DNA of 54,303 nt from Clostridia bacterium (GTDB lineage: Bacteria; Bacillota; Clostridia; UMGS1883). Below the pieces are notes generated by a model that had not been told where the DNA came from, made no database searches, and saw only the letters and a program-made list of their open reading frames with translations. The stretch spans positions 1-54,303 of the forward strand of contig JAZODM010000019.1 of assembly GCA_045596985.1 (NCBI GenBank), given 5' to 3'. Position numbers and translations under genes: made by a program. Positions 1,772-54,230 of the stretch are shown here, piece by piece (the first letter of the stretch is position 1; the number at the start of each line of letters is the position of its first letter).

Positions 1772-1956
1772 GGCTGACAAAGTCAGCCTTTCGCAACGAA
1801 AAGTTTCTAAAGAAAATGTTTCGTTGCGAGATAAGGGCTTACGCTCGCGCGGCACTCACCGTGCCAGCCCTTGTAAGGAATCAAAACCGAGGTTCACGCC
1901 CTCGGTTTTGATAAATTCAATGTTAAGGGGCATCCCCTTAACAATCCCCTTTTTTA
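1770..1956 (+). repeat. Multi-hairpin interspersed repeat, copy A
   Basis: Starts at the stop codon of the 1349-1771 ORF. Shares AAGGCTGAC-AAA-GTCAGCCTT and the GAGATAAGGGCT...CCCCTTAACA chain with 37188-37373 (+) and 48754-48915 (-). Confidence 0.85.
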
Positions 1957-16965: not shown

Positions 16966-17009
16966 AAAAAGTCGCCAAATACGATGGCGTGTACCTCGTA
17001 TTTGACGAC
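16966..17009 (-). terminator. cotF-like gene terminator; solo H3-like module of the interspersed repeat
   Basis: The minus strand reads GTCGTCAAATACGAGG-TACACGCC-ATCGTATTTGGCGAC followed by TTTTT. The GAGGTACACGCC segment (last stem bases plus loop) is identical to hairpin H3 of repeat copies B and C. Confidence 0.8.
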
Positions 17010-17021
17010 TTGCTTCGTTAA

Positions 17022-17480
17022 TTAATACATACTGTTTTTCTGCATATAATCGTACAGCTGTTTACCGTGCTCCTGCTCTTCCTTTTGAATGTGATTGATT
17101 GTGTTACGGATATTTTCATCCTTGAACTCAAATACGCACGTATCATACAGGTGTGAAGCGTGCTTTTCCGTTGTAAGCAGGTCACTCGCCAAAAACGCAT
17201 CGTTCTTCTTATCCTCACTGTCAGAGGGGCCATAAAACTCCGTAAAGGTCGGGCTTTGCTGCGAAGAAGAATTACCTGAAGACTGCGCTGGAGTCTTCCC
17301 GTTTTCAATCTTTGTCAGTGTATCATAGTGTCCCTGCTCTACCTGCGCAATGGAAATAAAGAGCTGTCTTAACTGCGGATCCTTTGCCTGCTGTGCCCCC
17401 TGTGTATATTTATCAACGCACAGCTTTTCTGTGTCCTTCATATCCTTTAAAAGACTTGTTTCCTTCTGACTTAACTGCAT
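17022..17480 (-). CDS. Spore coat protein F-like (Coat_F domain) protein
   Basis: 152 aa with two Coat_F-like helical segments (LLKDMKDTEKLCVDKYTQGAQQAKDPQLRQLF and LLTTEKHASHLYDTCVFEFKDENIRNTINHIQKEEQEH). Confidence 0.7.
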   Translation of the reverse strand: MQLSQKETSLLKDMKDTEKLCVDKYTQGAQQAKDPQLRQLFISIAQVEQGHYDTLTKIENGKTPAQSSGNSSSQQSPTFTEFYGPSDSEDKKNDAFLASDLLTTEKHASHLYDTCVFEFKDENIRNTINHIQKEEQEHGKQLYDYMQKNSMY

Positions 17481-36470: not shown

Positions 36471-37188
36471 AAATCTCGAAAAAAACTTTGGCGAAAATAA
36501 TGAAATTCACGTTCTTAAAGGAATTGACGAAAATATCCGCAAAGGGGAGCAGGTTGTTGTAATCGGCCCCTCCGGCAGTGGTAAAAGTACGTTTTTAAGA
36601 TGTCTTAATCTTCTTGAAAACCCTACTGAAGGTCAGATTTTCTTTAATGGTGAAGAAATTACTTCTCCAAAATGCGATATTAATAAGGTTCGTCAGAATA
36701 TTGGTATGGTGTTTCAGCACTTCAACCTTTTCCCGCACCTTACAATTAAGCAGAATATCACCCTCGCGCCCGTAAAACTTGGCAAAATGACTAAGGAAGA
36801 GGCAGATAAAAAGGCAATGGAGCTTCTTTGCCGTGTAGGTCTTTCCGATAAGGCGGATGCTTACCCTCAGCAGCTTTCAGGCGGACAGAAGCAGCGTATT
36901 GCGATTGTGCGCGCTCTTGCGATGAATCCTGATGTAATGCTCTTTGACGAGCCGACAAGTGCACTTGACCCCGAAATGGTTGGCGAGGTGCTTGACGTTA
37001 TGAAGGAGCTTGCCGCTGACGGAATGACGATGGTTGTGGTAACACACGAAATGGGCTTCGCTCGTGAGGTTGCAGATACCGTAATCTTTATGGATGACGG
37101 AAAGGTTGCAGCAAAGGGAACACCCGAGGAAATTTTCGATAACCCCACACATCCAAGGCTCAAAGAATTTTTAGGAAAAGTTTTGTAA
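36457..37188 (+). CDS. Amino-acid ABC transporter ATP-binding protein
   Basis: Walker [10 protein letters not shown], signature LSGGQKQR, Walker [12 protein letters not shown]. The GTG at 36457 lies 10 nt after AGGAGG; the track's TTG start is at 36436. Confidence 0.9.
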
Positions 37189-37373
37189 AGGCTGACAAGG
37201 TCAGCCTTTACAAAAAGAAGTTTTGCAAGCAAAACATTCTCTTTCGAGATAAGGGCTTTCGCTCGCGCGGCACTCACCGTGCCAGCCCTTTATAGGAGTT
37301 AAAACCGAGGTACACGCCCCCGGTTTTAACGATTTATATTGTTAAGGGGACACCCCTTAACAAACCCCTTATT
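37188..37373 (+). repeat. Multi-hairpin interspersed repeat, copy B
   Basis: Begins on the last base of the ABC ATPase stop codon. Hairpins: H0 37188-37208, H1 37220-37235, H2 37251-37290, H3 37301-37327, H4 37342-37360. Confidence 0.88.
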
Positions 37374-37379
37374 ATGTAT

Positions 37380-37417
37380 AAAAAAATACAGAGAGAAATT
37401 TTCTCTCTGTATTTTTT
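37380..37417. terminator. Bidirectional terminator (ABC operon / ypeB)
   Basis: ATACAGAGAGAA-ATT-TTCTCTCTGTAT flanked by an A7 run and a T7 run. Confidence 0.85.
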
Positions 37418-38742
37418 TATACCGCGAGTGTTCCGCCTTCTGTTTCGAGGAGAATCTGTACGTCCTCCGTATAGCCTGTCTGTGTATTTACATACGTCAG
37501 GAAATGCTTTCCTGAAACAATACCTTTTATTTGGTAACAACATGCCTCACTGCCGTCCTCAAGGGGGATTATTGCAGTTGTTACACCTTTTATTTTAAGT
37601 CCACTGCTTACGTTTTCAAGGGCTTTTTCCTCACTTATTTTCGGTGCAGGGATTTGCCGCTGCATATGGTTCATTATATATCCGCGGCTTTCAAAGCCTA
37701 TTACCTCGCCGCTGTCAAGGGCAACCTTAACCTTTACCAAATCAGGAAAAACAACATATCCGTCCTGTTCATAGGCATAGTTTATAACTATGCTTCCGTC
37801 ACGCTTTTCATAATAGCTTTCGCGCATATCCATAAACCCGTTATCGCGCAGGAAAAGCTCTGCCTTTACCTTTGCATCCTCTATGGAAAGCGTTTCCTCC
37901 TCAATATTTCTGTCACGCATCAATAAAAGGAGTATGCCGCCATCCTTTGTGTATTCAATAACACGGTCTTTACTCTTTATACTGTAGGACGGGAGCTTTC
38001 CGTTAATTTCCGTAACGCTCACTTCCTCTTCCCCTGTAAACTTTTTTGCATAATTTATCGCCTGCTTCTTGCTTATCTGCGCCTTGCCCTTTATCAGCAC
38101 AGATTCTTTCAGTGACAAATGCTGCGAAAACGGCCCGTCATATATAAGAGAAGGATAACTGTGAAATTCTTCTTCGAGCGAGGCAAGCTCGCTCGCCATA
38201 GCAACCTTTCCGCCTCCGATAAAGCTTCCTATCTTTGACGCTGAATTACTCAGCGATATTCTCCCCTCATTTATGCCTATGAGCATATCGTCAAGGCCAC
38301 TTTTGAGTGTTTCTGCATATTGCCTTAGCTCGCTCATTGTTTTTATTTCCTTTTCGCTCATTTTTTCGCCCTTGAGCATTTTTGCGGAAATTGCGTTTGC
38401 GTATTCTCCGACCTGCGACAAAAATTCCGACGTTTTTTCAAGCTGATGTCCGTCTAAGGGTAGCAGTGCCAGATTTGCCTTTGCACCGCTTGATTGTCCG
38501 TACAAATCACCTGCAAGCTTTGCCATCTGCTGCGGAGTAGAAATAACCTGCCCCTTTAAAAGTGAAATTTCAAGGTCATCCACATACTCTGTAAGCTCTG
38601 TAAAAACTCTGTTATACTCTATCTCCCTGGCGTAGCTCAGCTCCCTTGCCCTCTTATACTGCACAATGCCAAAAACCGTTACAAGGCACAGCAGCGTTGA
38701 AAGCAGAATGTACTGTTTGCGTTTTTTTAATATTTCAAACAT
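37417..38742 (-). CDS. ypeB: Germination protein YpeB
   Basis: N-terminal membrane anchor, YpeB-type N-domain (YAREIEYNRVFTELTEYVDDLEISLLKG), and C-terminal PepSY repeats. No sleB is adjacent. Confidence 0.8.
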   Translation of the reverse strand: MFEILKKRKQYILLSTLLCLVTVFGIVQYKRARELSYAREIEYNRVFTELTEYVDDLEISLLKGQVISTPQQMAKLAGDLYGQSSGAKANLALLPLDGHQLEKTSEFLSQVGEYANAISAKMLKGEKMSEKEIKTMSELRQYAETLKSGLDDMLIGINEGRISLSNSASKIGSFIGGGKVAMASELASLEEEFHSYPSLIYDGPFSQHLSLKESVLIKGKAQISKKQAINYAKKFTGEEEVSVTEINGKLPSYSIKSKDRVIEYTKDGGILLLLMRDRNIEEETLSIEDAKVKAELFLRDNGFMDMRESYYEKRDGSIVINYAYEQDGYVVFPDLVKVKVALDSGEVIGFESRGYIMNHMQRQIPAPKISEEKALENVSSGLKIKGVTTAIIPLEDGSEACCYQIKGIVSGKHFLTYVNTQTGYTEDVQILLETEGGTLAV

Positions 38743-46139: not shown

Positions 46140-46853
46140 TTAAACAATCGGCTCTTTACTCGGCTTGCCTGCCTTTCTGGGGTATTTTGAAGGTGTATTT
46201 GAAATTTTCTTGATTATTACAAGGCAGTGGTTAATTCCCGACGGCAAAAATACTTCCTTAACCTCTTCTATCTGTCCGCCCATTTCCTTTATGGCGCGTT
46301 TTGCGTTATTTATTTCTTCTTCGGGTGCATTTCCCTTTAATGCAACAAAATATCCGCCAACTCTTACAAACGGCAGCGCATATTCAGCAAGAACTGCAAG
46401 GTCTGCAACGGCGCGCGCCGTCGCCACATCAAATTTTTCACGCAGAGCTTTATCCTTTCCGCCGTCTTCTGCACGAAAATGGATTGCTCTTGCTTTTTCT
46501 ATACCCAAGTTGTTAATTACCTCGTTTAAAAAGCCAATACGTTTATTAAGCGAATCAAGCATTGTGAGGTTTATGTCCTCTCTTACTATCTTGACGGGAA
46601 GCGACGGAAACCCAGCACCTGCGCCTATATCAATCAGGCTGCAGCCTTCCTGAAGCTTTTTACTTGTTATAAGCGTAAGGGAATCAAGAAAATGCTTTTC
46701 TCTTATTTCATCAGGCTCTGTAATTGCAGTAAGATTCATAACCTCATTATACTCAAGCATTATTTGCGCATATTTTTCAAGATTATTTTGCATTTTTGGA
46801 GTGATTTCTATATCAAATTTAGCAGCTTCTTTTATTAAATCCATTTTTATCAC
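46140..46853 (-). CDS. rsmG: 16S rRNA (guanine527-N7)-methyltransferase
   Basis: GidB pattern ([35 protein letters not shown]). Confidence 0.9.
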
Positions 46854-48724
46854 CTTTTCTCATCATTCTTTGTTGCAAGGTAAATAAGAAGGACACCTAT
46901 GTCCGCAGGGCTTACACCGCTTATTCTGCTTGCCCTTCCTATATTTTCGGGGCGCATTTTTTCAAGTTTCTGGCGTGCCTCTGTCCTAAGGCCGTAAACC
47001 TTTGAATAATCAATATCCTGAGGTATCATTTTCTTTTCATTTTTTGAAAAACGCTCTACCTGTTCAAACTGCCTTTTAATATATCCTTCGTATTTTACTG
47101 CAATTTCAGCCTGCTGCCAGTGTGTTTTTTCAAGCTCAGGCCTTTCTTTGTCAAAAGGAGCAAGCTCTTCATAACAAAGCTCCGGTCTTCTAATAAGCTC
47201 TGCAAGCTTAATACCGGTTGTAAGGAGTTGACTTCCATTTTTTTCCAGATATTCGTTAATTTCTTTTGTCGGCGCGATGTTTACAGAATTAATTCGTTCT
47301 ATCTCTTTTTCTATATTTTCTTTTTTCTCAAGGAATTTTTTGTATCTTTCCTCTGAAATAAGGCCTATTTCATATCCTTTGGGAGTAAGGCGCAAATCTG
47401 CATTGTCCTGGCGCAACAAAAGTCTGTATTCTGCCCTTGAGGTAAGCATTCTGTAAGGCTCATTCGTTCCTTTTGTAACAAGGTCGTCTATCAAGACCCC
47501 TATATATGCCTCACTCCTGTCAAAAACAACGCTGTCAAGACCCTTTAGCTTTCTTGCCGCGTTTATCCCTGCCATAAGTCCCTGCGCCGCAGCCTCTTCA
47601 TATCCGCTCGTTCCGTTGAACTGCCCTGCTCCGAAAAGACCGGGTATTTCGCGCATTTCAAGTGACGGCTTTAGCTGCAACGGGTCGCAGCAGTCATATT
47701 CTATTGCATATGCACTGCGCATTATTTCAACATTTTCAAGGCCTTTCATCGTTTTTAGCATGGAAAGCTGAACATCCTCAGGAAGGCTCGTACTCATTCC
47801 CTGAAGGTACATTTCCTGTGTAGAAAGGCCCATAGGCTCTATAAATATCTGATGACGCTCTCTGTCTGCAAAGCGTACAACCTTATCCTCTATAGAGGGG
47901 CAGTATCTCGGCCCTATTCCGTCGATAAGACCGTTAAAAAGAGGACTTCTGTGAAGATTTTCTCTTATTATCTCGTGTGTTTTCGTATTTGTGTACGTAA
48001 GATAACAGCAAACCTTATTTTCCTCCTCCTTTGTTGTTTCAAAGGAAAACGGAACAATTTCCTCGTCGCCCTCCTGCTTTTCAAGAACAGAAAAATCAAC
48101 ACTTCTTGCGTGAATTCTTGTAGGCGTTCCCGTTTTAAAGCGCATCATTTCAACACCTAATTTCTGCAGACTTTCACTAAGTCCGTTTGACGGGAAAAGT
48201 CCGTCAGGGCCGCCGCTGTAGGCAGTTTCGCCTATTATTATTTTGCTTTCAAGATACGTCCCCGTTGAAATTATGACGCATTTAGAATAAAATTTTGTAC
48301 CCGTATGTATGGTAAGGGTAAATATATCGTTATCTTTTTGAATTTCTTTTACCTCGGCCTGCCTTATATAAAGATTTTTTTGCTCTTCAAGGCGCTTTTT
48401 CATTTCAATCTGATATGCGCGTCTGTCTGCCTGCGCGCGCAATGAATGTACCGCAGGCCCTTTCCTGAGGTTGAGCATCCTTGTCTGAAGTTTTGTGAGG
48501 TCTGCCACCTTTCCCATTTCACCGCCAAGTGCATCTATCTCCCTCACAAGGTGACCCTTCGCCGTTCCGCCTATGCTTGGATTACACGGCATATTTGCAA
48601 TGGAATCAAGGTTTATTGTAAGGAGAATTGTCCTCATTCCAAGCCTTGCTGATGCGAGTGCCGCCTCACATCCTGCGTGACCTGCACCTATAACGGCTAT
48701 ATCGTAATTAAATGTGTTATCCAT
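46850..48724 (-). CDS. mnmG: tRNA uridine-5-carboxymethylaminomethyl modification enzyme MnmG
   Basis: [19 protein letters not shown] motif; about 624 aa. The ATG at 48724 follows GGAGGA by 4 nt. The track start at 48736 has no SD. Confidence 0.95.
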
Positions 48725-48753
48725 AATTTCCTCCATACTTAATAACTAAAGCT

Positions 48754-48915
48754 ATAAAAGGGGGTTTGTTAAGGGGATACCCCTTTACATAAAATTCGTT
48801 AAAATCGGGGGCGTGTACCTCGATTTTAACTCCTTACAAGGGCTACCGCGGTGAGCGGTGCGCGAGCGTAAGCCCTTATCTCGAAAGAGAATGTTTTGCT
48901 TGCAAAACTTCTTTT
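48754..48915 (-). repeat. Multi-hairpin interspersed repeat, copy C (lacks H0)
   Basis: The reverse complement aligns with copy B from AAAAAGAAGTTTTGCAAGCAAAAC to CCCCTTAACAAACCCC. It starts directly at the mnmE stop codon and fills most of the mnmE-mnmG spacer. Confidence 0.88.
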
Positions 48916-50247
48916 TCACTTACCGAGGCAGAATTTTTCAAATATCCTGTCTACGGTTTCCTGATTAATACTTATACCCTCAGCCTCTCCCAAAAAAGCT
49001 ACCGCCTGACCGATGTCTATGGCTGCAAGGTCACTGAAAAATCCCTCTTCAAGTGTAGCGATTGCTTTTTTAATGCTTTCAGATGCGCGCAGCACAGCTT
49101 CATACTGCCTTTCGTTTGCTATAAATGCACTTGATGGGGTGTTTCCCACAATATCTGAAACAGCTTTTTTTATTTTATCTATTCCCTCGTTATTTTTTGC
49201 ACTTATTTCTATATATTCTTCTTTTATATTATCTTTTAAATCAACCTTATTTGCAACGAGAATATATTCCTTCTCCTTTATTTTTTTGAGGATTTCCTCC
49301 TCTTCTTTTGTAAGACTGCGTCCGCTTTCCGTTACAAAGATACATATGTCTGCGCTTTCTATATAATCAAACGATTTTTCAACGCCTATACTCTCTACCA
49401 CATCTTCGCTTTCGCGTATTCCCGCAGTATCACCGAATTTTACAGGAATTCCGTCTATATCCGTATATTCCTCTACTACATCACGGGTTGTTCCTGCTAT
49501 ATCTGTCACTATTGCCTTCTTTTTTTCGACAAGCGCATTTAAAAGTGAGCTTTTACCCGTATTTGGTATTCCGCAGATTGCACACGTTATTCCGTTATTA
49601 AGTGCCTCACCGCGTCTTGCCGTTTTTTTAAGAGATTCTAACTCATCTTTTATATTTTCAAGCTTTTCCTTTAGCTCTCCGCCTGCAAACGTATCAATGT
49701 CCTCTTCGGGAAAATCACTTGAAACCTGTATTGCCGCCAGTAAATCAAGAAGAAGCTGCCTTATCTTTATAATCGGCTTTGTTATCGCACCCTCTAATCT
49801 GTTTACTGCCGCAAATAACGCTTTATCCGTCTTTGCCTCTATTATATCATTTACCGCCTCTGCCTGGGTAAGGCTCATTTTTCCGTTTAAAAATGCCCTT
49901 TTTGTAAATTCACCTTTTTTTGCCATAGATGCTCCGTTTTCAAGGAGTGCATCTATTATTCTTTCCACACTCAGGGGGGAGCCGTGGCAGCTTATTTCGC
50001 ACACATTTTCACCGGTAAAGGAATTAGGTTTCCTAAAAACCGATACAAGACATTCGTCAATTTCCTTTTCTTCAAAAACTGCCTTTCCATAGACTATGGT
50101 ATATCCGTCAGCCTCTGTTATTTTTTTATTTGATTTTATTACTTTTTCCGTTATAGAAAGTGCGTTTTCACCACTCACCCTTATAACGGCAATTCCACCC
50201 TTACCACGTGGGGTAGAGAGGGCACAAACCGTATCATTTTCAAACAT
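48916..50247 (-). CDS. mnmE: tRNA modification GTPase MnmE
   Basis: GGIAVIRVSG, G-domain GIPNTGKSSL / DTAGIR / NKVDL, and C-terminal FCLGK. Confidence 0.95.
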   Translation of the reverse strand: MFENDTVCALSTPRGKGGIAVIRVSGENALSITEKVIKSNKKITEADGYTIVYGKAVFEEKEIDECLVSVFRKPNSFTGENVCEISCHGSPLSVERIIDALLENGASMAKKGEFTKRAFLNGKMSLTQAEAVNDIIEAKTDKALFAAVNRLEGAITKPIIKIRQLLLDLLAAIQVSSDFPEEDIDTFAGGELKEKLENIKDELESLKKTARRGEALNNGITCAICGIPNTGKSSLLNALVEKKKAIVTDIAGTTRDVVEEYTDIDGIPVKFGDTAGIRESEDVVESIGVEKSFDYIESADICIFVTESGRSLTKEEEEILKKIKEKEYILVANKVDLKDNIKEEYIEISAKNNEGIDKIKKAVSDIVGNTPSSAFIANERQYEAVLRASESIKKAIATLEEGFFSDLAAIDIGQAVAFLGEAEGISINQETVDRIFEKFCLGK

Positions 50248-52445: not shown

Positions 52446-52463
52446 AGAGTGTGTTCTTTCTGC

Positions 52464-52598
52464 TCAGGCAGAAAGAACACGTCTGCCTCTCTGACGGCGT
52501 CTTCTGAGAACCTTTCTTCCGTTAGCGGTACTCATTCTTTTTCTAAAGCCGTGATCCTTTTTTCTTTTTCTTACATTTGGCTGATAAGTTCTGAGCAT
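52464..52598 (-). CDS. rpmH: 50S ribosomal protein L34
   Basis: [44 protein letters not shown] (44 aa), with SD GGAGGTG upstream. The track's 80-aa ORF is an upstream extension. Confidence 0.96.
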
Positions 52599-52674
52599 TT
52601 TTGTGCACCTCCTCATTTTATAAAAAGCCTTTAAGGGGCTATTCTTCTCAATCATATCATAACGATACCAACAT

Positions 52675-52703
52675 AGTATACATAAACTTGTCTTTTTTGT
52701 CAA
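52675..52703 (-). promoter_or_regulatory. SigA-type promoter of the rpmH-rnpA operon
   Basis: The minus strand reads TTGACA (52703-52698), a 17-nt spacer, then TATACT (52680-52675). Confidence 0.75.
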
Positions 52704-52731
52704 CAATTATTTTATTTTTTTTAATTTTAAG

Positions 52732-52760
52732 TTGAATTTTGATCTATTATTTGGTATAAT
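52732..52760 (+). promoter_or_regulatory. SigA-type promoter of dnaA
   Basis: TTGAAT (52732-52737), a 17-nt spacer, then TATAAT (52755-52760), about 165 nt upstream of the ATG. Confidence 0.65.
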
Positions 52761-52782
52761 AAATTGAATGTTTATTTTTAAG

Positions 52783-52875
52783 TTTTTAACAGTTTTATTG
52801 CTTATTTTTGAGTTATTAACAGATTTTTTGCGAATATGCCTTAATTTGGCTACTTTTTAACAGTTTTTATTAACA
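52783..52875 (+). promoter_or_regulatory. Cluster of four same-strand 9-mers TT(T/A)TTAACA (candidate non-canonical DnaA boxes / oriC part)
   Basis: TTTTTAACA at 52783-52791 and 52854-52862. TTATTAACA at 52813-52821 and 52867-52875. All lie between the dnaA promoter and the ATG. No CCACA or TGTGG core occurs in 52707-52925. Confidence 0.5.
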
Positions 52876-52925
52876 AGCCTGTTTAAAACTTTCATTCTTT
52901 TATTATTTATAAAGGACTGTTTATT

Positions 52926-54230
52926 ATGGTATCTGATTTAATCAAAATGTGGACAGAATGTCTCATTCTTTTAGAGGAGGAGGTTACTCCTGTAGGGTTT
53001 AATACGTGGATAAAGGATATTAAGCCGCTTAATATGAATGATACTACACTTACTCTTTCTGTAAGTACGTCAATTATCAAAAATATGGTAGAGATGCGCT
53101 ATTGTGACCTTATTAAAAACACAGTTGCGCAGATAACGGGTAAAATCTACGATATTGAATTTGTGATAGGCGATAATTTTTCCTCACAAACTAAAAAGGC
53201 AGATTACCACAATACTTATCAGAAATATACTTTTGATAATTTTGTAGTAGGTAATTCAAATCGTTTTGCACAAAGTGCGTCACTTGCCGTTGCAGAATCA
53301 CCTGCATATGCATATAACCCTCTTTTTCTCCACGGTGGAGTGGGTCTTGGAAAAACGCATCTTATGCACGCTATAGGTAATTACATAAAGGCTAATGACC
53401 CCGACGCAAAGATTGAATTTTTAAGTGCAGAAACCTTTACTAATGAGCTTATAAATTCAATTAAAGATAATAAAAATCAGGAGTTTCGTGATAAATACAG
53501 AAATATTGATGTACTGCTTGTTGACGATATTCAGTTCATTGCAGGAAAAACAACAACCGAGGAGGAGTTTTTCCACACCTTTAACACCCTTCACGAGGCT
53601 AATAAACAGATAGTACTTACAAGCGACAGACCGCCTAATGAAATAAGAACACTTGAAGAAAGGCTTCGTTCAAGATTTGGATGGGGACTTATCTGTGATA
53701 TTCAGCCGCCTGATTACGAGACGAGAATTGCTATTTTACGTAAAAAGGCACAGAATGAAAATATAATTATAAGCGACGAAATAATAGAGTTTATAGCACA
53801 AAAGATAAAGTCAAACATTCGTGAGCTTGAAGGTGTATTTAACAGAGTTGTTGCTTACCGCGGACTTATAAATAAAGAAATAACCATTGATGTTGCGATG
53901 GAGGCTCTTAAGGATTACGGTGAAAGCAGTGAAAAGAAAATAACCCCCGACTATATTATAGAGAGCTGTGCTAAATTTTATAATGTTAAGAAAGAGGATA
54001 TTTATTCTGAAAAAAGAAATAAGGAGATTGCCTTTGCACGTCAGGTTTCCATCTATATTATAAGGGAAATTACAAATTATTCTTTCCCTAAAATAGGTGA
54101 TATTTTTGGAAAAGACCACGCAACTGCAATTTATGCCATAAAGCAGATTACAAAGCTTATGGAAAATGATTTAAGCGTTAAAATTAATATAGAAGGACTT
54201 ATAAATGACATAAAGGGCGCAGCTAATTAA
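52926..54230 (+). CDS. dnaA: Chromosomal replication initiator protein DnaA
   Basis: AAA+ Walker A GGVGLGKTHL, Walker B LLVDDIQF, sensor RSRFGWGL, and a C-terminal domain IV with the atypical signature FGKDHATAIYA. Confidence 0.96.
   Translation: MVSDLIKMWTECLILLEEEVTPVGFNTWIKDIKPLNMNDTTLTLSVSTSIIKNMVEMRYCDLIKNTVAQITGKIYDIEFVIGDNFSSQTKKADYHNTYQKYTFDNFVVGNSNRFAQSASLAVAESPAYAYNPLFLHGGVGLGKTHLMHAIGNYIKANDPDAKIEFLSAETFTNELINSIKDNKNQEFRDKYRNIDVLLVDDIQFIAGKTTTEEEFFHTFNTLHEANKQIVLTSDRPPNEIRTLEERLRSRFGWGLICDIQPPDYETRIAILRKKAQNENIIISDEIIEFIAQKIKSNIRELEGVFNRVVAYRGLINKEITIDVAMEALKDYGESSEKKITPDYIIESCAKFYNVKKEDIYSEKRNKEIAFARQVSIYIIREITNYSFPKIGDIFGKDHATAIYAIKQITKLMENDLSVKINIEGLINDIKGAAN

Follow-up and report, generated by a model that had tools for sequence, protein, structure and literature searches.

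A mosaic hairpin repeat between cistrons and at operon ends in uncultured gut Clostridia

The genes mnmE and mnmG normally lie tightly together. In contig JAZODM010000019.1 of a Clostridia bacterium (assembly GCA_045596985.1; 54,303 nucleotides, hereafter the window), 191 nt separate the two genes, and this spacer is filled by one copy (C) of a structured repeat that also occurs in the window as copies A and B and as a partial copy D, i.e., at a density of three copies and one partial copy per 54 kb. The locus raises the question of what such an element does between two neighboring cistrons and what keeps its stems paired while their sequences change. The answer that we consider reasonably probable is that the element is a co-transcribed structured repeat of 3' untranslated regions (3'UTRs) and intercistronic spacers, built of hairpin modules and comparable to REP/BIME or BOX elements, in a clade of uncultured gut Clostridia.

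Hairpin modules and their pairing

Copy C lies on the minus strand (48760..48918; 184.4 bits with the covariance model of the family) and comprises the modules H1, P2/H2, H3, H4 and a tail, without the 5' hairpin H0. The base of H1 (48881..48918), a hairpin whose pairs covary, overlaps the TGA stop codon of mnmE (48918-48916). P2 (48838..48877) consists of AAGGGCT, the internal loop TACGCTCGCGC, H2 and AGCCCTT, where H2 (48845..48859) reads ACCGC-TCACC-GCGGT. H3 (48798..48830) is composed of GTTAAAATCG, a bulged A, the loop GGTACACGCCC and CGATTTTAAC; both P2 and H3 are supported by sequence and covariation. H4, GTAAAGGGG-TAT-CCCCTTAAC, and the tail AAACCCCC complete the copy (48760..48788). 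The 5' neighbor is mnmE (48916..50247, minus strand; Pfam MnmE_helical and TrmE_N), with a C-terminus FCLGK followed by the stop codon, and the 3' neighbor is mnmG (46850..48724, minus strand; Pfam). As the first-pass annotation had described, copy C starts at the mnmE TGA and ends shortly before mnmG, in our hands at about 48760, 36 nt before the likely mnmG start codon (ATG 48724). Two in-frame ATGs are present here (48736 and 48724; window 48722-48736, minus strand). The start in the list of open reading frames (ORFs), 48736, is probably four codons too long, as homologues align from 48724 and a GGAGG box at 48734-48730 precedes this ATG.

Further copies were gathered by two pattern scans of a species-representative genome collection and by nhmmer on the fetched loci, which are cited below by L numbers. 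The first pattern, with 18 positions (17 specified bases), mostly gave chance matches in high-GC genomes and was replaced by a second one of 29 bases, in which the H2 stem was left free. In the search pattern, the internal loop of P2 and the loop of H2 are fixed, while the ten stem positions of H2, the H3 loop and the tail are free. Besides the window copies, approximately 115 copies of at least 100 nt were obtained in at least 30 metagenome-assembled genomes (MAGs) from human and ruminant guts, labelled as Clostridia, Clostridiales or Oscillospiraceae. A large number of copies are situated at the end of a contig, which is where a repeat that disrupts assembly would be expected.

Across the family, the element is a mosaic of hairpin modules of 165-190 nt. 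H0 (GGMTGRC, a short loop, GYCAKCC, then TTT) is followed by the long hairpin H1 and by P2, in which AAGGGCT/AGCCCTT encloses an 11-nt internal loop and the 5-bp H2 with its TCACC loop. A purine-rich linker, GCAAGGAG, leads to H3 (10 bp, a bulged A, 2 bp and the loop UACACGCC), and an AU-rich linker to H4 (TTAAGGGG-N3-CCCCTTAA) and the C-rich tail AATCCCC. H0 is missing from around 15-20% of the copies, including copy C; some copies lack H1 or H4, and solo H3+H4 units occur. In copies A and B, H0 reads GGCTGAC-AAR-GTCAGCC followed by TTT. The first-pass annotation had not included this additional 5' hairpin, while the copies themselves are real and all its quoted sequences and coordinates for A, B and C were recovered. 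The three copies share 74-83% identity across 150-187 nt and score 218, 208 and 184 bits, respectively, with the covariance model (E-values of 5e-56 to 4e-47). A search for tertiary contacts by mutual information over all alignment columns returned only helix pairs and small extensions of H1 and H4.

The reported difference between the window copies was confirmed: H2 is GGCAC-TCACC-GTGCC in A (1851-1865) and B (37269-37283) and ACCGC-TCACC-GCGGT in C (48859-48845, minus strand), with three pairs swapped, and a fourth compensated change, from C-G to U-A, distinguishes H3 of B (AAAACCG...CGGTTTT) from that of C (AAAATCG...CGATTTT). In a structure-blind MAFFT alignment of 70 full copies, 95.1% of the cells pair compared to 84.4% in shuffles, 37 out of 55 pairs show changes on both sides, and the number of compensated cells amounts to 420 versus 133 in shuffles; none of 500 shuffles reaches these values. 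When partners are slid by one to three columns, pairing falls to 37-51% and compensated cells drop to about 40. The column pairs with the highest mutual information are helix pairs. As paralogous copies share ancestry, 15 pairs of orthologous copies (copies from different species that share both the site and the flanking genes) were compared in addition. Among their differences, 46 are compensated double changes, 20 are pair-breaking single changes, six are singles that leave a wobble and two are uncompensated doubles. The larger alignment and the orthologs support structure-preserving evolution of the stems.

The first-pass annotation proposed selection on secondary structure rather than on primary sequence. 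This interpretation is supported, with the qualification that primary sequence is constrained as well, in the loops and junctions. In five copies that fall outside both search patterns, TCACC is retained in all five, the internal loop is exact in three and has one change in two, and P2 is compensated. The H3 loop and the tail are conserved although the pattern left them free, as is the single bulged base of H3. The most distant copy, L090 from a higher-GC genome, has different stem sequences in H1, H3 and H4 and has retained the loops; with the consensus, it shares 72% identity in unpaired columns versus 59% in paired columns.

The stems are around 96% Watson-Crick with almost no G-U on either strand. 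Pairing alone therefore cannot separate RNA from single-stranded DNA, or selection from palindrome-correcting repair. Arm-to-arm correction by quasipalindrome template switching can match hairpin arms. Together with gene conversion, such repair might keep the stems of a tolerated selfish or neutral repeat paired in the absence of functional selection, and several features of the family would fit. Wobble or single-mismatch intermediates are almost absent: out of 114 copies, 53 carry the H2 allele GGCAC/GTGCC, 29 ACCGC/GCGGT, 18 GGCGC/GCGCC, four GGTGC/GCACC, three GACGC/GCGTC, two ACTGC/GCAGT and one GCCAC/GTGGC (seven fully paired alleles, including that of copy C), and only four copies are imperfect. 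Whole hairpins are swapped, as between the orthologous copies L091 and L150, which differ at four H2 pairs and in almost nothing else. Every combination of H2 alleles with H1 and H3 types is found, GGCAC and ACCGC each with many H1 and H3 variants. At the mnmE-mnmG site itself, H2 is ACCGC in the window and GGCAC in L199 and L173, and one H3 position shows three different pairs among these three copies. As old H2 alleles occur on many H1/H3 backgrounds, modules have been exchanged between copies. On the sequences compared, the H2 difference between B and C is a swap of long-standing family alleles and not a run of new substitutions in copy C, at odds with the first-pass view of independent substitutions; such an exchange would most simply occur by gene conversion between copies. 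Local inversion of the stem-loop, which that annotation had named as another possible source, was ruled out: inversion keeps the stem and turns the loop into GGTGA, while TCACC is unflipped in copy C. Correction or conversion alone is nonetheless insufficient, given the conserved loops, the stems of L090 that diverged more than its loops, the 95% orientation bias described below, and the conservation of orthologous copies (86.8% mean identity, compared to 82.6% for 400 nt of flanking, mostly coding, DNA). As a full account of the family, we judge it quite improbable.

Copies sit in sense orientation within transcription units

Gene contexts were derived from simple ORF calls in 8-kb loci. Between co-directional genes, the element is in sense orientation in 62 of 65 cases (95%) and antisense in three, and no copy lies inside an ORF. 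H0 begins 0-4 nt past the preceding stop codon; in copies without H0, the distance from stop codon to H1 is 1-6 nt. The following start codon is mostly found 20-50 nt past the tail. Genes 5' of the element are ordinary housekeeping genes (atpG, ybeY, radC and a sleB-like hydrolase gene); intercistronic examples include mnmE-mnmG and the sites downstream of atpG and ybeY. In some copies, among L086 and others with 4-15 nt between the end of the ORF and H1, the upstream reading frame appears to stop at the TGA within GGATGAC of H0. Together with the mnmE TGA in the base of H1 of copy C, this indicates that the repeat can overlap the stop codon or provide it. In several species, the element directly abuts the 3' end of the signal recognition particle (SRP) RNA gene (Rfam RF01854, 198 bits; L161 4038-4463, L127 3889-4329, and also L192 and L155), with a separate terminator-like hairpin after the adjoining element. 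Placement is thus independent of a stop codon or translation. Inverted pairs of copies in L161 and L155 flank the SRP RNA gene and not a transposase.

In 13 of 18 convergent sites, the sense strand holds a separate canonical terminator beyond the element, giving the order stop codon, element, terminator. Copies A and B are of this type. Copy A (1772..1949, plus strand; 218.1 bits) starts directly after a TAA (1769-1771) and consists of H0 (1772-1788), H1 (1791-1829), P2/H2 (1833-1872), H3 (1880-1912), H4 (1922-1942) and the tail. Copy B (37190..37368, plus strand; 208.2 bits) follows the TAA (37186-37188) of an ABC-ATPase gene at a distance of 1 nt and consists of H0 (37190-37206), H1 (37209-37247), P2/H2 (37251-37290), H3 (37298-37330), H4 (37341-37361) and the tail. 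Bidirectional terminators (A-tract, hairpin, T-tract) directly 3' of both copies, at 1964-1999 and 37380-37418, place A and B between the stop codon and a terminator shared with the convergent gene. Copies of the family thus sit in sense within transcription units, either between cistrons or between the stop codon and the operon terminator.

Termination itself does not appear to be a property of the full element. H0 is followed by TTT only, and the canonical terminators at operon ends are separate from the element. The sense strand of copy C holds neither a terminator-like site, in agreement with the first-pass annotation, nor a promoter-like one. The idea that H0 acts as a terminator that is counter-selected in operons was dropped, since its retention (44 of 55 co-directional versus 13 of 14 convergent sites) shows no clear effect, and H4 as a module specific to intercistronic copies was dropped as well, with a trend only (p = 0.10). 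Partial copy D (16966..17012, minus strand; 30.9 bits, E-value 1e-6) is a solo H3-like hairpin with the family loop GAGGTACACGCC and a longer stem followed by TTTTT. Unlike copy C, it has the hairpin and U-tract that define an intrinsic terminator, and, judged by these features, it looks like a working terminator made from one repeat module. It is located 10 nt past the stop codon of a CotF-domain gene (17022..17480).

In the window, orientation follows transcription and not replication, as far as three copies can tell: A and B (plus strand) and C (minus strand) lie in one replichore to the left of dnaA, and each matches the strand of its upstream gene. A Pfam search of the window proteins confirmed mnmE, mnmG, rsmG and dnaA (52926-54230, plus strand). 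dnaA faces minus-strand ORFs with the sizes of rnpA, rpmH, yidC and jag, followed by mnmE, mnmG and rsmG, across a gap region at 52446-52926. Based on this arrangement, the replication origin is probably situated in the gap at 52.7-52.9 kb. GC skew is negative over most of the window, with a local positive stretch at around 30-37 kb.

The sense bias, the position from stop codon to terminator, the coding-like conservation, and the conserved unpaired bases next to diverging stems argue for constraint and for a role at the transcript level. The argument for RNA comes from orientation and context, not from pairing. We therefore favor the interpretation that the element is transcribed with its host genes and would act as RNA, as a stack of stable hairpins that shapes the fate of the mRNA. 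At operon ends and between cistrons, the hairpins may block 3' exonucleases and so protect the upstream cistron. Cleavage could plausibly occur in the AU-rich single-stranded linker that joins H3 to H4, and it would leave H4 as a 5' hairpin on the message of the downstream cistron. Close to the stop codon (within 15 nt), a hairpin may also damp termination or translation of the upstream gene, as in E. coli, where REPs at most 15 nt from the stop codon lower translation of the upstream gene according to the part of PMC12306157 that cites its ref. 17. Copy C would be non-terminating, so that mnmG would be co-transcribed with mnmE. For BOX, BIME, ERIC and Correia elements, effects on co-transcribed genes have been described or proposed (PMC3049150).

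A more far-reaching possibility, which we deem unlikely, is that the element is a functional RNA "punctuation mark" of operons. Its invariant loops (TCACC, the bulged A plus GGUACACGCCC, and the tail AAUCCCC) could be read by a host factor or could form a catalytic or processing fold. The element could then have spread in a transcription-coupled manner, without target-site duplication and landing at gene 3' ends, and the scarce wobble and the allele swaps could reflect active copy-correction.

Several observations weigh against a co-transcribed repeat acting on mRNA, for which co-transcription and any mRNA effect are what we infer. Outside H0, sense G-U accounts for 28 cells and A-C (G-U on the opposite strand) for 53, next to 3221 Watson-Crick and 57 other cells, and both strands of copy C fold equally well (z of -4.96 and -5.06). 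Such strand-symmetric pairing is unusual for a selected RNA and suits a DNA-level or repair-driven process equally. The terminator-like H0 is retained at most co-directional sites (the 44 of 55 given above), and the higher retention of H4 in intercistronic copies (45 of 54) than in terminal ones (32 of 47) is the trend already mentioned. Moreover, the sample of copies was gathered with a pattern fixing the P2 internal loop and the H2 loop, and the gene contexts stem from crude ORF calls. Finally, 35 out of 70 copies carry a promoter-like TTGTTA-17-TAAAAT on the opposite strand.

This last feature could mean that the element is a small-RNA gene on the opposite strand, antisense to the operon, with a promoter over H4 and the linker and an end near the reverse complement of H0. 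The reverse-strand TTGTTA is followed by a 16-19 nt spacer and TAAAAT or TATAAT in these 35 copies, and the motif is present in copy C too. The A-rich sequence 5' of H0 would form a U-rich run after the reverse complement of H0, and the sole recurring resemblance in Rfam, to Clostridiales-2, is on the same opposite strand. Yet conservation within the element is lowest at the −10-like stretch, which half of the copies lack or carry in a poor form, the reverse strand shows no consistent terminator beyond it, and the Rfam scores of 11.6-19.5 bits are far under the gathering score of 58.6. An antisense gene would also offer no obvious rationale for placement 0-6 nt past stop codons in operons such as atp (62 of 65 cases). 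This explanation is, in our view, highly improbable.

Insertions are old and vertically inherited

The first-pass annotation regarded the mnmE-mnmG junction as normally tight, and a comparison of orthologous spacers bears this out. Among relatives found through MnmG, 31 have the two genes adjacent with −4 to 48 nt between them (median near 15 nt), and in the closest one by MnmG identity (L196; 91%), mnmE and mnmG overlap. The junction is filled by the element in three species, namely the window, L199 (224 nt) and L173, and in L198 only a remnant is left (H0 and the first 16 nt of H1). In L197, L200 and L123, unrelated structured inserts occupy the site: L197 (2243-2488) carries a 246-nt insert of another repeat family with 19 BLAST matches among the loci, while L200 (2383-2491) and L123 (1650-1761) carry a long palindrome of about 110 nt (AATGCGGAATGCGGAATACGG...). 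The filled, remnant and unrelated-insert sites indicate that the element is an insertion able to decay by deletion and that the junction tolerates inserts; judged from these spacers, it appears to be a tolerated landing site. The insertions of the family are shared between species whose flanks are only 70-80% identical. They are old and vertically inherited, and their rate of change is about as low as that of the coding DNA around them.

Evidence of insertion brings in another explanation, in which the element is a non-autonomous DNA transposon recognized through its hairpins, like REP/RAYT or IS200/IS605 systems. A tyrosine (HUH) transposase would read the hairpins in single-stranded DNA, and any RNA effects would be incidental. 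Copies are numerous and dispersed, often at contig ends, and site occupancy varies between related species. Terminal inverted repeats were not found, and target-site duplication was not significant, as the longest word shared by the flanks measures 3.97 nt versus 3.76 nt after permutation (37 copies; p = 0.08); both are expected to be absent in single-stranded DNA transposons. The near-pure Watson-Crick stems with no strand-specific wobble and the conserved single bulged base in H3 would fit as well. On the other hand, orientation tracks the local genes (62 versus 3, and A, B and C in the window) and not replication, and old insertions are common to diverged species. A constant target of 4-5 nt is lacking at the 5' end, where flanks vary and share only a nearby stop codon. 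No transposase was noticed beside any copy, with flanking ORFs sampled rather than systematically scanned, and a viral contig scan and a plasmid BLAST gave no match to the element. Taken together, we regard a transposon of this kind as fairly unlikely.

Other small repeats are lodged within some copies, either in the loop of H1 or in the linker preceding H4. A repeat of about 60 nt (TTTGGGGACAGG...GTCCCCGTCCCC), with six matches among the loci, is found in the apical loop of H1 in L187 (1826-1891), L192 (5166-5230) and L093 (1266-1331). In L189 (7469-7747), the linker before H4 holds a 271-nt miniature inverted-repeat transposable element (MITE) that has a TTAA duplication and whose terminal inverted repeats (CCAAAAGCGAATAGTCCGAAC) measure about 21 nt, so classical MITEs are also present in the host genomes. 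The window itself further contains short direct repeats, 72-76% identical (16078-16127/18718-18767 and 12153-12194/12375-12416), in large minus-strand ORFs, one of which encodes an SLH/transglutaminase protein.

The family adds a well-supported and abundant structured element to poorly studied gut anaerobes that are known almost only from MAGs. For annotation, it matters that the repeat breaks assemblies, inflates spacers in conserved operons (mnmE-mnmG, atp) and could be mistaken for a terminator or a small-RNA gene. With its dozens of orthologous and paralogous copies, the stems of which are compensated, the family offers a clean natural data set to separate selection at the RNA level from palindrome correction at the DNA level. 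The family could also serve to test whether hairpins after stop codons tune expression in Firmicutes as REPs do in E. coli.

Comparison with known systems

The element sequence was not found in a full-text literature search, and a search of this kind for Clostridiales-2 gave no result either. At the gathering threshold, Rfam gave no match overlapping an element in the whole window and eight loci (approximately 12 copies), and the matches in the eight loci were two SRP RNA genes only. In E-value mode, only weak matches appeared, i.e., Clostridiales-2 (RF02937) and noise from miRNA and snoRNA families. The reverse-strand match to RF02937 over the tail and H4 shares a G-rich stretch followed by a GGGG/CCCC hairpin, in related bacteria. 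However, it reaches just 18.2, 19.5 and 11.6 bits and requires an insertion of 90 nt at a position that spans 34 nt in the model. Membership in this family was therefore rejected. Compared to structured RNA classes in general, covariation and a consistent orientation and position are present, while the stems show no one-strand G-U signature.

Among mobile elements, a MITE was rejected, as neither terminal inverted repeats nor a target-site duplication was found. PATEs, which derive from IS200/IS605, resemble the element in being non-autonomous and strongly oriented, with hairpins at their ends instead of terminal inverted repeats and without target-site duplication. However, they insert 3' of a fixed tetra- or pentanucleotide and are oriented by the replication fork, whereas the element has variable 5' flanks and is oriented by transcription. 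An IS200/IS605-type element was likewise rejected, given the lack of a fixed target and an orientation that, for the three window copies, is not linked to replication. A group II intron fragment, an integron attC site, a CRISPR repeat and a plasmid single-strand origin were also considered and set aside, as they do not seem to fit in size, context or the lack of partner genes.

The closest likeness is to interspersed repeats in transcripts. REP/BIME elements are also high-copy, extragenic structured repeats in 3'UTRs and intercistronic spacers, co-transcribed, mosaic, and devoid of terminal inverted repeats and target-site duplications, and many REPs lie within 15 nt of a stop codon (PMC12306157; PMC2817692). 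A REP, however, is a single imperfect palindrome of 20-40 nt; REPs alternate in orientation, carry a conserved 5' GTAG, have partner RAYT genes and occur in Proteobacteria. The element consists of five different hairpins in fixed order and one orientation, with conserved loops, in a Clostridia host, and no RAYT gene was noticed in the flanking ORFs that were sampled. While the high-copy extragenic location is shared, the single short palindrome is not, and the element was not assigned to the REP class. BOX of Streptococcus pneumoniae is likewise a modular Firmicute repeat that gains and loses modules, has extensive predicted RNA structure, is co-transcribed and is thought to affect its neighbors (PMC3049150). 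Its boxA and boxC ends pair as terminal inverted repeats and boxB occurs in tandem, whereas the element has neither end pairing nor a tandem module; no sequence resemblance was noticed, though no direct comparison with a BOX model or sequence was made. SPRITE, ERIC and Correia elements are also small structured repeats for which position and orientation relative to transcription matter; SPRITE is enriched at gene 3' ends, and transcribed ERIC and Correia elements are cleaved by RNases (PMC3049150). Yet SPRITE consists of just one terminator-like hairpin, ERIC and Correia elements form long imperfect palindromes that carry terminal inverted repeats, Correia elements make a TA duplication, and none of the three has the five-module layout or the 95% sense bias in operons. 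The family appears to be undescribed, and it falls among the known small structured interspersed repeats in bacterial transcripts.

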